Of a stretch of 8,257 bases of DNA, positions 3,098 through 7,916 are shown in pieces. A program made the translations under genes and the position numbers. The notes under the pieces are model-generated. The model ran no database searches, was not told where the DNA came from, and worked only from the letters and a program-made list of their open reading frames with translations. The DNA is from a virus: the UHGV virus genome UHGV-0211679; one strand, written 5' to 3'. Position 1 is the first letter of the stretch; every line of letters starts with the position of its first letter.

Positions 3098-3135
3098 CGG
3101 CACCGGTAACGCCAGTTCCCACCATCCTTACCATT

Positions 3136-3168
3136 GGTGCGCATAATGTACGACTCGTTATGTTGAAA
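3136..3168 (+). other. dif-like XerC/XerD recombination site (candidate attP of an Xer-exploiting integrative phage)
   Basis: GGTGCGCATAA (3136-3146) is an 11/11 match to the XerC arm of E. coli dif (GGTGCGCATAA-TGTATA-TTATGTTAAAT, recalled). Then TGTACGACTCG (11-nt central region beginning TGTA), then TTATGTTGAAA (3158-3168), 9/11 to the XerD arm. Central region is longer than the canonical 6 bp. Confidence 0.6.
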
Positions 3169-3202
3169 AGGCCGCTGCGAAAATAGAATCCCGCAGCGGC
3201 CT
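3169..3202. terminator. Hairpin between convergent genes, putative bidirectional intrinsic terminator
   Basis: AGGCCGCTGCG (3169-3179) / CGCAGCGGCCT (3192-3202): 11-bp GC-rich stem, 12-nt loop. Followed by CTTTA on + and TTTCAA on the minus strand, so the U-tracts are short. Lies between the end of the 2864-3097 ORF and the end of the minus-strand operon. Confidence 0.5.
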
Positions 3203-3232
3203 CTTTAGCATAACGTCATTGTGCGAACCAAT

Positions 3233-3937
3233 TCATAATGCTGCGGGAGCCACGTAATAGACAATCACAAATACAGCTAATGCTCCACCTGCTCTTACCC
3301 AGTTTGATATTTTGACTTCTATAAACCCGGGTATAAATGAGACTACCCCAGCAACTGCTGCTGAAAGAATTATTCGAAAGAAAGTGTATTGAAAGTTCGT
3401 TGGATTAGGTATAAATATTGCGATTATTATAAAAAGAATAACAAGTAAAATGCCAAAGCTAAATGCCGCTATTCTCTCGTGTGCTTTTGTCAATTTTTCT
3501 TTTCCTTTATTGTCAAATCCATATACTGGCATATCTTCATTAACGAAAAGATTCCTTATTTCTTTTGCAGAACGTTTGTCATGGGCTTTTACTATCCTTT
3601 GCATTGAAGCAAAAGCAGTGGAGCTTGGTTTAATACTATTATCATTCATTACCTCTCTATATTTTTTGTAATGAGCTAAGATAAGGTGAAGAACATCAAT
3701 GCATGTTTCTGCAAGCCATTGATTCCATTGAGTATTATTTAATTCATCTACTGTTCTGTTATGTGCAGCGCAGTGTTCTAAATAGCCGAAAAAACTGTCT
3801 CCACATGAATTCACGGTATCAAAATCACATTTACCAGATAGGTAACACTCTAATGACTCAGTATATTTTTCATATAAACGCTCAATTTCTTTTTTTTGAT
3901 TATCAATGATACCGTGAACATCCATATCTGATTTCAC
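3233..3937 (-). CDS. Membrane protein, about 230 aa: Cys-rich soluble N-domain plus C-terminal transmembrane helices; function unknown
   Basis: Minus-strand ORF, stop TGA (rc of 3233-3235). First codon is GTG at 3937-3935, overlapping the upstream TAG (TAGTG); the first ATG is at 3925-3923. N-terminal about 155 aa hydrophilic with C-x5-C-x7-C-x10-C (LECYLSGKCDFDTVNSCGDSFFGYLEHC). C-terminus has hydrophobic stretches FSFGILLVILFIIIAIFIP, FFRIILSAAVAGVVSFIPGFI and GGALAVFVIVYYVAPAAL. Visibly AT-rich compared with the phage core. Confidence 0.6.
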   Translation of the reverse strand: MKSDMDVHGIIDNQKKEIERLYEKYTESLECYLSGKCDFDTVNSCGDSFFGYLEHCAAHNRTVDELNNTQWNQWLAETCIDVLHLILAHYKKYREVMNDNSIKPSSTAFASMQRIVKAHDKRSAKEIRNLFVNEDMPVYGFDNKGKEKLTKAHERIAAFSFGILLVILFIIIAIFIPNPTNFQYTFFRIILSAAVAGVVSFIPGFIEVKISNWVRAGGALAVFVIVYYVAPAAL

Positions 3938-4212
3938 TATCTTTTTTGTTGAGTGTTATTTGACTGGGATTGAATTTTTGCCAATAGCGAACTTGCTTTC
4001 GATGTATTCAATCCATTACAAATCATTCTTGTAATCGGTTTTTTGTAAATTCGATGAACGATATTTTCAACTTCAGTGATGCTTTCATTGCCACTGAGTT
4101 TTTTTATCTCATTGAACATCTCCTCCAATTGTTCATTTGTTGGATGCCATTTGATTATATCTAATTCTTCCTCTAATGCTTTTTTAAAAAGGAAAACCTG
4201 AAAAGATAACAT
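3937..4212 (-). CDS. Hypothetical small protein, 91 aa, with C-terminal tail paralogous to the upstream ORF
   Basis: ATG at 4212-4210 preceded by AAGGAAAG with 4-nt spacer; stop TAG (rc of 3937-3939). C-terminal 26 aa NGLNTSKASSLLAKIQSQSNNTQQKR parallels the tail of ORF 4214-4510. Confidence 0.55.
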   Translation of the reverse strand: MLSFQVFLFKKALEEELDIIKWHPTNEQLEEMFNEIKKLSGNESITEVENIVHRIYKKPITRMICNGLNTSKASSLLAKIQSQSNNTQQKR

Positions 4213-4213
4213 A

Positions 4214-4510
4214 TTACTTTCCTTGTGTTGGTTTAGTAGTGGATTGTTGAGCTTTTTCTAAAAGCCTTTTTGCTTTAGATGTGTCCAAACCATCTTGGGC
4301 AAAGCCTTGTTGCTTATCATTCTGTTTTTGTTCACTTTTTTTTGGCGTATTCATCAGTATATACTTTGACTCGTTTTGTTTATCTCGATGACTTACTTTT
4401 TGTTTAAGTTTTGCACAAACTAGAACGTGCAGTGTTGGTAATACTGCACGTTTGTACCATTCGTGGTACTTAATCCTTTTGTTTGGCAGACATGAGATCT
4501 TCTGCTGCAT
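4214..4510 (-). CDS. Hypothetical small K/Q-rich protein (start uncertain), tail paralogous to ORF 3937-4212
   Basis: Stop TAA (rc of 4214-4216), 1 nt before the ATG of the next gene. The track start at 4528 is a TTG; the first ATG is at 4510-4508, and a later ATG at 4354-4352 would give a 46-aa product. None has a clear SD. C-terminal 26 aa DGLDTSKAKRLLEKAQQSTTKPTQGK. Overlaps the end of the RHH gene if started at 4510. Confidence 0.3.
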   Translation of the reverse strand: MQQKISCLPNKRIKYHEWYKRAVLPTLHVLVCAKLKQKVSHRDKQNESKYILMNTPKKSEQKQNDKQQGFAQDGLDTSKAKRLLEKAQQSTTKPTQGK

Positions 4511-4652
4511 CTTTAGAGTAGTTATCAATCAGATAACCTAAAATCTCTGTCCATGTAATTGTTTTTCCTAGTTTTACACTGGCATTTATAGCCAGTCGTT
4601 CTAGTTTCATTTTTCTTTCTTCCGTCACGTTATAAGTCGTGCGCTTTGCCAT
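4470..4652 (-). CDS. Ribbon-helix-helix-like small DNA-binding protein, 60 aa (candidate phage repressor or antitoxin-type regulator)
   Basis: ATG at 4652-4650, stop TAA (rc of 4470-4472). MAKRTTYNVTEERKMKLERLAINASVKLGKTITWTEILGYLIDNYSKD fits an RHH pattern: short N-terminal beta-strand (TYNVT), helix, turn, helix. Divergent from gene II across a repeat-containing region. Confidence 0.55.
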   Translation of the reverse strand: MAKRTTYNVTEERKMKLERLAINASVKLGKTITWTEILGYLIDNYSKDAAEDLMSAKQKD

Positions 4653-4779: not shown

Positions 4780-4821
4780 GTGTTAGTAAGTCGTCATTTT
4801 TGCAATTTTGAGGATTTATTC

Positions 4822-5874
4822 GTGATCGATTGGCTTACCGGGATTTTCCCTTGCACACACAAACCGCTTCCGGCGGGGAGTGTTGTCAGCGTTGATGCTG
4901 ACGGTGCAATTGAGTGGGAAACCGTTAAGCGACTGACTGTTCGCGGCTCGCATGAAGCAACGATGAAAGTACGATCGATAGGATCTAATGGCGAAGGTAA
5001 AGCGACACATTTGTACATTGATGGTAATCCGTCCAAGTTTTTGCAGGGGCATTCTGTTGTTGGGTCGGATGATATACAAGGGCTCATGTTGACGGTCTAT
5101 GCCAGGATTTTATCCTTATTGAATATTCCTCATGATTTAGCGTCTTATAAAGCTGTTATAGCAGGTCAGTATAAAATTTCACGTGTTGACATTAATTACA
5201 TGTATTCATTATCTACGCTAGAAAATGTCAGATCATGGCTTTATGCCGCCGAATTTAAAGCTAAAACACGCCATGGTCGCGCATGTGGGAAAGGCGGTAC
5301 AGTTTATTTAGGTAAAAACTCCCGTCGATGGAGTCTGAAATTTTATTCAAAATATGATGAACACGTTTCGGGTAAAAAAGGGCACCAGATAGCCGAAGAT
5401 TTTGTACGAGCCGGGTTACTGGACTGGACGAAAGATAAATTACGTATTGAATTAACATTAAGAACAACTGAGCTTATTGATTTAAATTTAACGCTTGGCG
5501 CTAACTGGAATATGAAAACACCACGTCAATTATTCTCTGAATATGTAGGGAGAATAGAAATGAATCAGAATGCTATTTTAAGTGATGAAAAAATAACGAA
5601 ACTGCCAAGAAAAATACAGTCAACTTATTTACTTTGGAAACAAGGGGCTAACATGAAAGAAATGTTACCTCATAACACTTTTTATCGCCATAGAAGAGAA
5701 TTGCTTTCGTTCGGTATCGATATTAATTTCTATTGTGATTCACCAGACTCTAATAACGTTGTTCCGCTAATAAGAACGCTGGAAGCCAAGCCAGTGGAAA
5801 TCCCCTTATGGATTTATGAGAAAGGTTTTATTTTCGATTACAACCGTATTTCGCACGCCAGTAGCTGGCATTAA
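4822..5874 (+). CDS. II: Replication initiation protein pII (gene II, rolling-circle nickase)
   Basis: GTG start at 4822 preceded by GAGGA (4810-4814) with 7-nt spacer; product begins (M)IDWL..., compare M13 pII MIDML.... Blocks NPSKFLQGHSVVGSDD and NNVVPLIR match recalled M13 pII (SPAKVLQGHNVFGTTD, NNVVPLVR). Stop TAA 5872-5874. An upstream in-frame GTG at 4780 lacks an SD. Confidence 0.85.
   Translation: MIDWLTGIFPCTHKPLPAGSVVSVDADGAIEWETVKRLTVRGSHEATMKVRSIGSNGEGKATHLYIDGNPSKFLQGHSVVGSDDIQGLMLTVYARILSLLNIPHDLASYKAVIAGQYKISRVDINYMYSLSTLENVRSWLYAAEFKAKTRHGRACGKGGTVYLGKNSRRWSLKFYSKYDEHVSGKKGHQIAEDFVRAGLLDWTKDKLRIELTLRTTELIDLNLTLGANWNMKTPRQLFSEYVGRIEMNQNAILSDEKITKLPRKIQSTYLLWKQGANMKEMLPHNTFYRHRRELLSFGIDINFYCDSPDSNNVVPLIRTLEAKPVEIPLWIYEKGFIFDYNRISHASSWH
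5560..5874 (+). CDS. X: pX (gene X), in-frame internal start within gene II
   Basis: ATG at 5560 in the gene II frame with SD GGGAG (5548-5552); product MNQNAILSDEK..., 104 aa, equal to the C-terminal part of pII, as in Ff phages (M13 pX starts MNIYDDSAVL). Confidence 0.6.
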   Translation: MNQNAILSDEKITKLPRKIQSTYLLWKQGANMKEMLPHNTFYRHRRELLSFGIDINFYCDSPDSNNVVPLIRTLEAKPVEIPLWIYEKGFIFDYNRISHASSWH

Positions 5875-6649: not shown

Positions 6650-6658
6650 ATTTCACTC

Positions 6659-6683
6659 AGGGGCACTCGTTGCCCCTTTATTA
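6659..6683 (+). terminator. Rho-independent terminator after gene VIII
   Basis: AGGGGCA (6659-6665), loop CTCGT, TGCCCCT (6671-6677), then TTTATT. Position matches the strong central terminator downstream of gene VIII in Ff phages. Confidence 0.75.
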
Positions 6684-6695
6684 AAGCGGGTTACT

Positions 6696-7916
6696 ATGAA
6701 AAGGAAAATATTAATTCTTTCCGCTGTCCTCATTTCTCCTTTTTCACATGCTGAGTCATGGGAAAGCATTACTAAATCCACTTATCAAAGCTCTGCCTAC
6801 GCTGAAAGTAAGCAAATAACCAATCAGGATGGCTCTAAGTCAACGGTTTACTATATTGATGCTGCTATGCAGGCCTCCGCTTGTCAGGGTGCTAAATCCA
6901 GTGCTCAGAGTGTATTTACTCAGGTTAAACCAACTTATGAGGGTATCTGGCCTGATTCTGAATTCCGTCTTGTTTTTACTGGTGATTGTACTTACAGCGA
7001 TTCACCAGGGCAGAAGGATAAATATTGGTCTTTAACGGCTTATATTGTTGGTGATATTCAGCGTTCTGTTCCTGATGAAAAACCTACTGACCCGACACCA
7101 GAAGAAATTTGTGAAGCGAAGCCGCCAGAAGAAGGTGTATTTAATAATGTTGATTCATATGATGGTGGTCGTTATATCTACTATAACGGCTGTGAATATG
7201 AGGCTACTGGTGTCATTGTTTGTCAGGGTGATGGTACTGTTTGCGCTGCAACATGGAAGCCTACAGGTACTGTAGCTGACCCCTCTGATAAACCCTCAAC
7301 CCCCCAAAATGGTGGTGGTGAGTCTGGCGGTGGTGAGTCTGGCGGTGGTGAGTCCGGTGGCGGTAGTTCTGGCGGTGGCTTTAGTGGTTCCAGTCTTTCT
7401 AAAGGTGATATTCAGTCTGCTATCGAAGGTGCTTCACCCAAAATAGCCAGCGATATTCATGATAAATTAACGGAGAAAGACACTTCATCAGATGATAAAA
7501 AAAATGCCGATGAACAAACTAGGAATAATATAAATCGTCTTGACGATTCCATTAACAATCTTACGCGGGGGGCTGGCCGTTTTGCTGACCCTTCAGGTGG
7601 TGATTCTCGTTATGGAAAGGGCGACTCTGAATTAGATGGCGCTTCTACTTTGGCTGATTCTGAATTGGGAATTGAAAAGGATTCTCACGGTGCTTTATGG
7701 GAAGCATTTTTAAATAAAGGTGCTATGCTGCCTAATTTACCCAATGGTAACGGCTGCTCTGATTTTATTATTTTTCCCGGAGAGGTTTATCAGATTGATA
7801 TTGGTTGCGATAAATTACTGACTATTAAAGATGTTCTTTCATGGGTTTTTTATTGCCTTACGTTCTGGTATGTCTTTACTTCTTTAACTTCATTGCTTCG
7901 CAAAGGGGGTGAGTGA
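6696..7916 (+). CDS. III: Adsorption protein pIII (gene III) with Gly-rich linker
   Basis: ATG 6696 gives signal peptide [19 protein letters not shown]. Gly/Ser-rich linker [23 protein letters not shown] and a hydrophobic C-terminal anchor ([14 protein letters not shown]) are typical of pIII. Stop TGA 7914-7916 overlaps the gene VI ATG (TGATG). The track start at 6552 overlaps gene VIII and is rejected. Confidence 0.9.
7311..7379 (+). repeat. Tandem 15-bp repeats encoding the pIII (GGGES)n linker
   Basis: GGTGGTGAGTCTGGC at 7314-7328 and 7329-7343, with diverged copies at 7344-7358 and 7359-7373. Confidence 0.85.

Follow-up and report, generated by a model that had tools for sequence, protein, structure and literature searches.

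The gene III protein and its linker

The 8257-bp sequence analysed here (the window) corresponds to a single, complete unit of a filamentous prophage that integrates at dif and in which gene III encodes the attachment protein g3p (Table 1). The likely start of gene III (MKRKILILS...) aligned with that of the IKe gene. PHROG 4150 matched the protein at 3e-262, and tblastn found it to be 53-55% identical, over its full length, to the gene III products of IKe, I2-2 and the Erwinia PEar phages. The exact protein of the window is present on 190 public contigs, where it is named 'attachment protein [Escherichia coli]'. In the Pfam search, G3P_pilus-bind (PF21443) matched aa 22-125 at 5.3e-26 (91 bits; cut-off, 27) and Phage_Coat_A (PF05357) matched aa 135-176 at 7e-6 (26.1 bits; cut-off, 20.8). 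In the PDB sequence search, the IKe pilus-binding domain (4eo0) matched aa 20-128 at 1.3e-26 and the IKe TolA-binding domain (4eo1) matched aa 130-195 at 4e-25, with the N1 domains of f1/fd coming next. The gene order is VIII-III-VI, with a PF19199 major coat gene upstream of gene III and a DUF5455 gene in the gVI position downstream, followed by a Zot-like gI and the secretin gene gIV. Taken together, the domains, the single linker, the anchor and the gene order indicate that the gene III product is an IKe-type inovirus attachment protein, for which the binding of an N-type pilus and of TolA is predicted at the level of domains.

The repeat array aligned with the glycine-rich linker found in the IKe, I2-2 and PEar gene III products (alignment columns 201-260), which places a single long Gly-rich linker, by alignment and model, between the TolA-binding domain and the C-terminal virion-anchor domain. 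The C-terminal domain was largely invariant in the alignment against IKe/I2-2/PEar and 35 homologues. In the AlphaFold2 model, which was built on 36 homologues, the domains flanking the linker had a pLDDT of about 85-93, while aa 206-235 had a pLDDT of about 30 (below 50), no secondary structure and the lowest confidence of the whole protein. The sequence-only reading, which had assigned the repeats to a flexible linker of gene III, is thus supported on both points: the assignment by the Pfam and PDB matches, the protein identity, the gene order and the linker alignment, and the flexibility by the array being the structure-free part of the model.

Table 1. Features of the window and of related loci, with sequences and encoded peptides of the repeat units
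Feature	Position	Strand	Basis or content
Gene III (g3p, the attachment protein; 406 aa and a stop)	6696..7916	+	ORF, Pfam PF21443 + PF05357, PHROG 4150, homologues
Putative signal peptide, 19 aa	6696..6752	+	Aligns with annotated IKe gene III signal peptide; pLDDT <50, aa 1-19
Pilus-binding-type domain, aa 22-125	6759..7070	+	PF21443, PDB 4eo0, pLDDT about 90
TolA-binding-type (N1) domain, aa 130-195	7083..7280	+	PDB 4eo1, f1/fd N1 domains, PF05357, pLDDT 84-90
Five tandem 15-bp units, one each of types A B C D E	7311-7385	+	aa 206-230, glycine-rich linker; Tandem Repeats Finder, shuffle test, unit typing, pLDDT
Unit A			GGTGGTGGTGAGTCT, GGGES
Unit B			GGCGGTGGTGAGTCT, GGGES
Unit C			GGCGGTGGTGAGTCC, GGGES
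Unit D			GGTGGCGGTAGTTCT, GGGSS
Unit E			GGCGGTGGCTTTAGT, GGGFS
C-terminal domain with hydrophobic anchor, aa 236-406	7401..7913	+	Alignment; helical in model
attP	3134-3168		Junctions in L005, L006, L007, L009 at about 6439 and about 14697
Cargo block ORFs	3233-3937, 3937-4212, part of 4214-4528	-	Window 3238-4400
Plasmid copies of the about 70-bp element	L043:2501-2571, L046:2501-2578, L047:1458-1531

Knowledge of glycine-rich repeat linkers in gene III goes back to the earliest Ff and IKe sequences. IKe and I2-2 (Lineavirus; N-pilus-specific) and Erwinia PEar have the same order of signal peptide, pilus-binding domain, short Pro-rich connector, TolA-binding domain, one long Gly-rich linker and C-terminal anchor domain as the window protein, and IKe, I2-2 and PEar1 carry period-15 DNA repeats at the same position of gene III. 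The unit peptides are GGGES/GGGSS/GGGFS in the window but GGGDT/GGGST/GGGSS in IKe/I2-2/PEar, and the repeat linker of 25 aa in the window is about half as long as their linker of about 50 aa. Furthermore, the window phage integrates at dif, has a genome of about 8.26 kb and carries an extra divergently transcribed module, whereas IKe, I2-2 and PEar are non-integrating phages of 6.7-6.9 kb. The kinship of the window phage to these phages is visible at the protein level only. A megablast search of the whole window against phage records gave only about 2% coverage, indicating that the window phage is absent from that phage collection.

In the Ff phages (f1/fd/M13), Gly/Ser/Glu pentapeptide linkers, (EGGGS)n and (GGGS)n, likewise tether the receptor-binding domains to the C domain, and the f1 N1 domain with its adjoining linker aligned with aa 137-227 of the window protein. 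However, the Ff protein carries its domains in the opposite order and contains a pair of linkers (N1-G1-N2-G2-C), while a single long one, located behind the TolA-binding domain, is present in the window type. The register of the repeat is SE-GGG in Ff and ES-GGG in the window, and N1 and N2 are tightly coupled in Ff.

In single lysogens, the prophage begins at window 3134, passes 8257/1 and ends at 3150. An exact copy of the 28-bp E. coli dif forms the right junction, attR, in the four lysogens with mapped junctions (Table 1), and the left junction carries a phage dif-like site (GGTGCGCATAATGTACGACTCGTTATGTTGAAA) in which the XerC-side arm is as in E. coli dif and the central region is different. 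The prophage adjoins hipBA (hipA) in E. coli and often occurs as 2-4 tandem copies. Gene III was matched by megablast in 52 of 5426 complete E. coli genomes (about 1%), and a more sensitive search with its 5' half found 55 complete E. coli genomes. The same phage, with a different cargo, also occurs as a 7.9-kb circular Salmonella 'plasmid'. CUS-1 of E. coli O18:K1:H7 and Ypf-phi of Yersinia pestis share with the window phage the dif integration, the tandem copies, the two opposed transcription blocks, the two small ORFs by attR, the variable ORF pair by attL and the extra-intestinal E. coli hosts. The dif integration, tandem copies and variable attL-side ORFs of CUS-1/Ypf-phi, as well as their receptor-binding virion protein puvA, have been published, and the receptor of this phage group was reported as unknown (PMC4266046). 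The window phage matches the CUS-1/Ypf-phi group, to which we liken it by the published description rather than by sequence identity.

The linker array and its length alleles

Tandem Repeats Finder detected one clear tandem array in the whole 8257-bp window, at 7310-7378, with a period of 15, 4.6 copies, 83% matches and a score of 94. None of 200 dinucleotide-preserving shuffles of the window reached this score (mean 31.8, maximum 62). The array therefore consists of head-to-tail copies beyond chance, as in a coding minisatellite (VNTR), and the 15-bp tandem repeats noticed in the sequence-only reading are real. Some details of that reading need adjustment. When unit boundaries were set by reading the gene III frame from 7311, the start of its span (7311-7379) was correct, but its end stops after the last Gly codon of the fifth unit, and the codon-aligned end is 7385. 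The units had been described as near-identical, which holds for units A, B and C (14/15, each differing from the others by one synonymous position) but not for the degenerate units D and E (about 9/15 and 7/15, respectively, against neighbouring units). Similarly, the proposed (GGGES)n holds for three of the five units, the other two encoding GGGSS and GGGFS.

We also permuted the synonymous codons within gene III with the protein fixed, and 16 of 200 permutations reached a score of 94. Thus, the window alone gives no proof of DNA-level duplication beyond the repeated peptide and the codon bias. The evidence for such duplication is the comparison of alleles, for which units were typed in about 40 copies of the gene, taken from assemblies that included E. 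coli chromosomes and IMG/VR contigs. The window allele, A B C D E (75 bp), is the shortest of its lineage, and its relatives have the structure A B (B) C D (C D)n E. Every added unit repeats the bases of unit B or of the C+D pair exactly, synonymous positions included, and the expansion in the lineage of the window proceeded mostly via the 30-bp C+D double unit.

Twenty-one copies of gene III had no mismatches to the window outside the array (615 + 531 = 1146 bp), and the arrays in these copies were 75, 105, 135, 150, 165, 180 or 240 bp long. Because 5 of the 21 copies were picked for encoding exactly the window protein, the allele frequencies in this set are biased, while the number of alleles is unbiased. 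FDAARGOS_1257 (L039) was 100% identical to the window over 7378 bp, with the array as the sole difference. In the chromosome of E. coli CP068817.1 (L004), two tandem prophages carry a 75-bp array (10616-10690) and a 135-bp array (18873-19007), and thus differ by 60 bp in the array but otherwise by 1 mismatch in 7378 bp. The array was 150 bp in BH100 substrain MG2014 (L041) and 180 bp in BH100N MG2017 (L042), a difference of one 30-bp block. The array hence shows whole-unit copy-number polymorphism among otherwise identical sequences, as in a VNTR.

Across 48 complete E. coli genomes, a 501-bp query (7100-7600) spanned 483-666 bp in 22 lengths, and all 22 length classes differ by multiples of 3. 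The units are 15, 30 or 12 bp in size, the 12-bp GGES/GGSS units being found in a second allele family (WKPTGA...), and frameshifted copies were seen only in one assembly, which is frameshifted throughout. Within the same 90%-identity protein clusters, the array encodes 20-69 aa. A search of 5.8 billion proteins showed that close relatives carry 2-9 GGGES units and that a sister lineage has 3 to 6 copies of GGGDT. No allele below 20 aa was found among about 60 gene or protein copies. A contig scan for the gene returned only 4 loci and was of little use for copy-number counts. It had been suggested from the sequence that the copy number may vary between isolates and that linker repeat number should be compared among related phages; the seven array lengths on identical 1146-bp flanks and the 22 lengths in the complete E. 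coli genomes bear out the suggestion.

On the other hand, most tandem prophage arrays have equal linker-array length in each copy (L037, L038, L039, L044, L045), which means either that the array does not change so fast that all copies differ, or that the assemblers homogenised the copies. Measured against the divergence of strains, the array therefore changes often; it does not do so at each replication. We left E. coli EC5502 (L035, NZ_CP092647.1) out of the copy counts because its assembly is full of frameshifts. In this chromosome the gene III segment was matched at 15 places, which would imply a very long tandem prophage array; nearly all its genes are annotated as frameshifted, and the assembly quality is doubtful.

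Possible causes and consequences of the length variation

We propose, with a probability of about 0.88, that the array encodes a single long disordered tether that gains and loses whole units, and that the resulting variants accumulate. The linker would join the pilus-binding-type domain, and then the TolA-binding-type domain, to the C-terminal domain built into the virion tip. By homology with g3p of Ff and IKe, such a flexible tether may let the N-terminal receptor-binding domains reach their receptors. The pIII linkers of f1 (Ff) have been described as flexible, unseen in cryo-EM and of sufficient length to let a pilus be clamped by several pIII copies (PMC10175506). The head-to-tail 15-bp units, together with the 30-bp double units in the relatives, would allow the gain and loss of whole units. 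The structure of the alleles points to slippage during replication and/or unequal recombination, among others between tandem prophage copies, as the likely routes, and rolling-circle replication and the tandem prophages could provide the opportunities. Since the unit lengths are multiples of 3 and the tether is likely length-tolerant, variants would stay functional and accumulate. The outcome is a coding minisatellite whose rate of change far exceeds that of the remaining phage. The length of the linker is probably near-neutral; because no allele falls below 20 aa, the variation is most simply regarded as neutral within bounds.

It is also conceivable, though rather unlikely, that the array is an adaptive, contingency-type locus in which the number of units tunes the reach of the receptor domains, and with it adsorption, host range or the balance of release and superinfection, and in which selection keeps the repeats. 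The numerous alleles on an otherwise invariant phage and the location of the array within a receptor-binding protein would fit this idea, and the shortest allele of 20 aa among about 60 copies suggests a lower bound. In addition, disruption of the g3p-type puvA of CUS-1 reportedly lowers the in vivo fitness of E. coli K1 (PMC4266046). However, the same pattern is predicted if a mutable repeat drifts neutrally in a linker that tolerates length change. More distant homologues have linkers that are rich in glycine/serine but show little repetition, indicating that the repetitiveness is not conserved, and on/off switching is absent, since all lengths are in frame. We accordingly give a low probability to the array being a selected tuning knob, by which a phage population would sample tether lengths (20 to 80 aa observed overall) and so adapt the efficiency of infection or the range of hosts among E. 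coli, Salmonella and related hosts. If this were true, the array would also provide prophage-carrying lineages with a fast molecular clock or a marker for typing. A phase-variable on/off locus was considered separately and rejected, as the length classes in the 48 genomes all differ by multiples of 3.

A role at the level of the nucleic acid, in which a structured ssDNA or mRNA, a Chi-like hotspot or an overlapping gene would be primary and the peptide repeat secondary, is very improbable. The + strand is G-rich at the array, with many GG runs, yet 7296-7400 folded as ssDNA with an energy of -9.3 kcal/mol, which was equalled or bettered by 149 of 200 shuffles (z = +0.62). No Rfam family scored above threshold in the whole window, and the Chi site (GCTGGTGG) is absent from it. 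A 45-codon ORF (7309-7446) crosses the array in another frame; as an overlapping gene it was rejected, being just the Gly codons read out of frame (VVVSLAVVS...) with a length that changes with each allele.

It is equally hard to credit that the repeat, or its variation, is an artefact of assembly or sequencing: although the array is a place where short-read assemblies break off and partial proteins end, and although the low-quality EC5502 assembly has frameshifts in and around it, the exact protein of the window stands on its many contigs from several independent sources, identical alleles recur in unrelated complete genomes and every length is in frame. An artefact is ruled out for the window allele, while individual length calls, including the BH100 pair, could be assembly errors, as repeats are error-prone and a number of database proteins are cut short within the array.

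DNA repeats in gene III linkers are a familiar source of length variants. The array had been called an expected feature rather than a novelty, and this was a fair judgement. Our literature search (puvA; repeat slippage in pIII) returned no description of repeat-number polymorphism in the linker. The array is thus a known kind of feature, and the extent of its polymorphism, which we did not find described, is unsurprising to a specialist; little is changed for biology in general. Regardless, no other site of this prophage, which is otherwise almost clonal and is also found in many Salmonella, varies nearly as much as the array, and as the most variable site in a widespread prophage it could serve as a fine-scale typing marker. 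Engineers of this receptor-binding protein should expect linker instability. The array also breaks or distorts short-read assemblies, which leads to partial or oddly fused 'attachment protein' entries. Public entries P0063 (508 aa), P0020 (480 aa), P0078 and P0080, together with many attachment proteins marked 'partial', include secretin-G3P fusions, over-long products and truncations within the array, and these odd entries are probably by-products of assembling the tandem prophages and the repeat.

Neighbouring elements of the prophage

Window 3238-4400 is the sole large difference between otherwise near-identical phages. In place of this cargo block, KFu015 and the Salmonella episome NZ_CP140410.1 have a gene for a Doc (death-on-curing) toxin, and ECONIH2 and Combat2C1 have an ECs_2282 zinc-binding protein plus others. 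Different cargo variants lie adjacent to each other within one tandem array (L037, L038). The cargo ORFs of the window gave only sub-threshold matches in Pfam and PADLOC, and the 234-aa cargo protein ends in predicted hydrophobic segments.

At about 3159-3230, the window contains an element of about 70 bp in which TATGTTGAAAA is combined with a GC-rich hairpin and a dif-like site in inverted orientation. More than 400 plasmids carry this element at 88-97% identity; they are mostly conjugative IncF plasmids of E. coli but also come from Klebsiella, Serratia, Pantoea and Enterobacter. The plasmid copies always lie just 3' of a varying cargo gene (STM4504 family, Shedu nuclease or small hypotheticals), and the swappable cargo module of the phage begins exactly at the end of the element. 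It may be a Xer-type site plus terminator that marks exchangeable modules common to phages and plasmids.

Another GC-rich hairpin with a T run, at window 6657-6682 (GGGGCACTCGTTGCCCCTTTATT), lies between gene VIII and gene III, at the position of the stem-loop annotated in the IKe record as a potential transcription terminator. In the gene II ORF (4780-5874), a GTG start at 4780 gives a product of 364 aa, identical copies of the gene are publicly annotated with 350 aa, and the true start of gene II is probably the downstream ATG.
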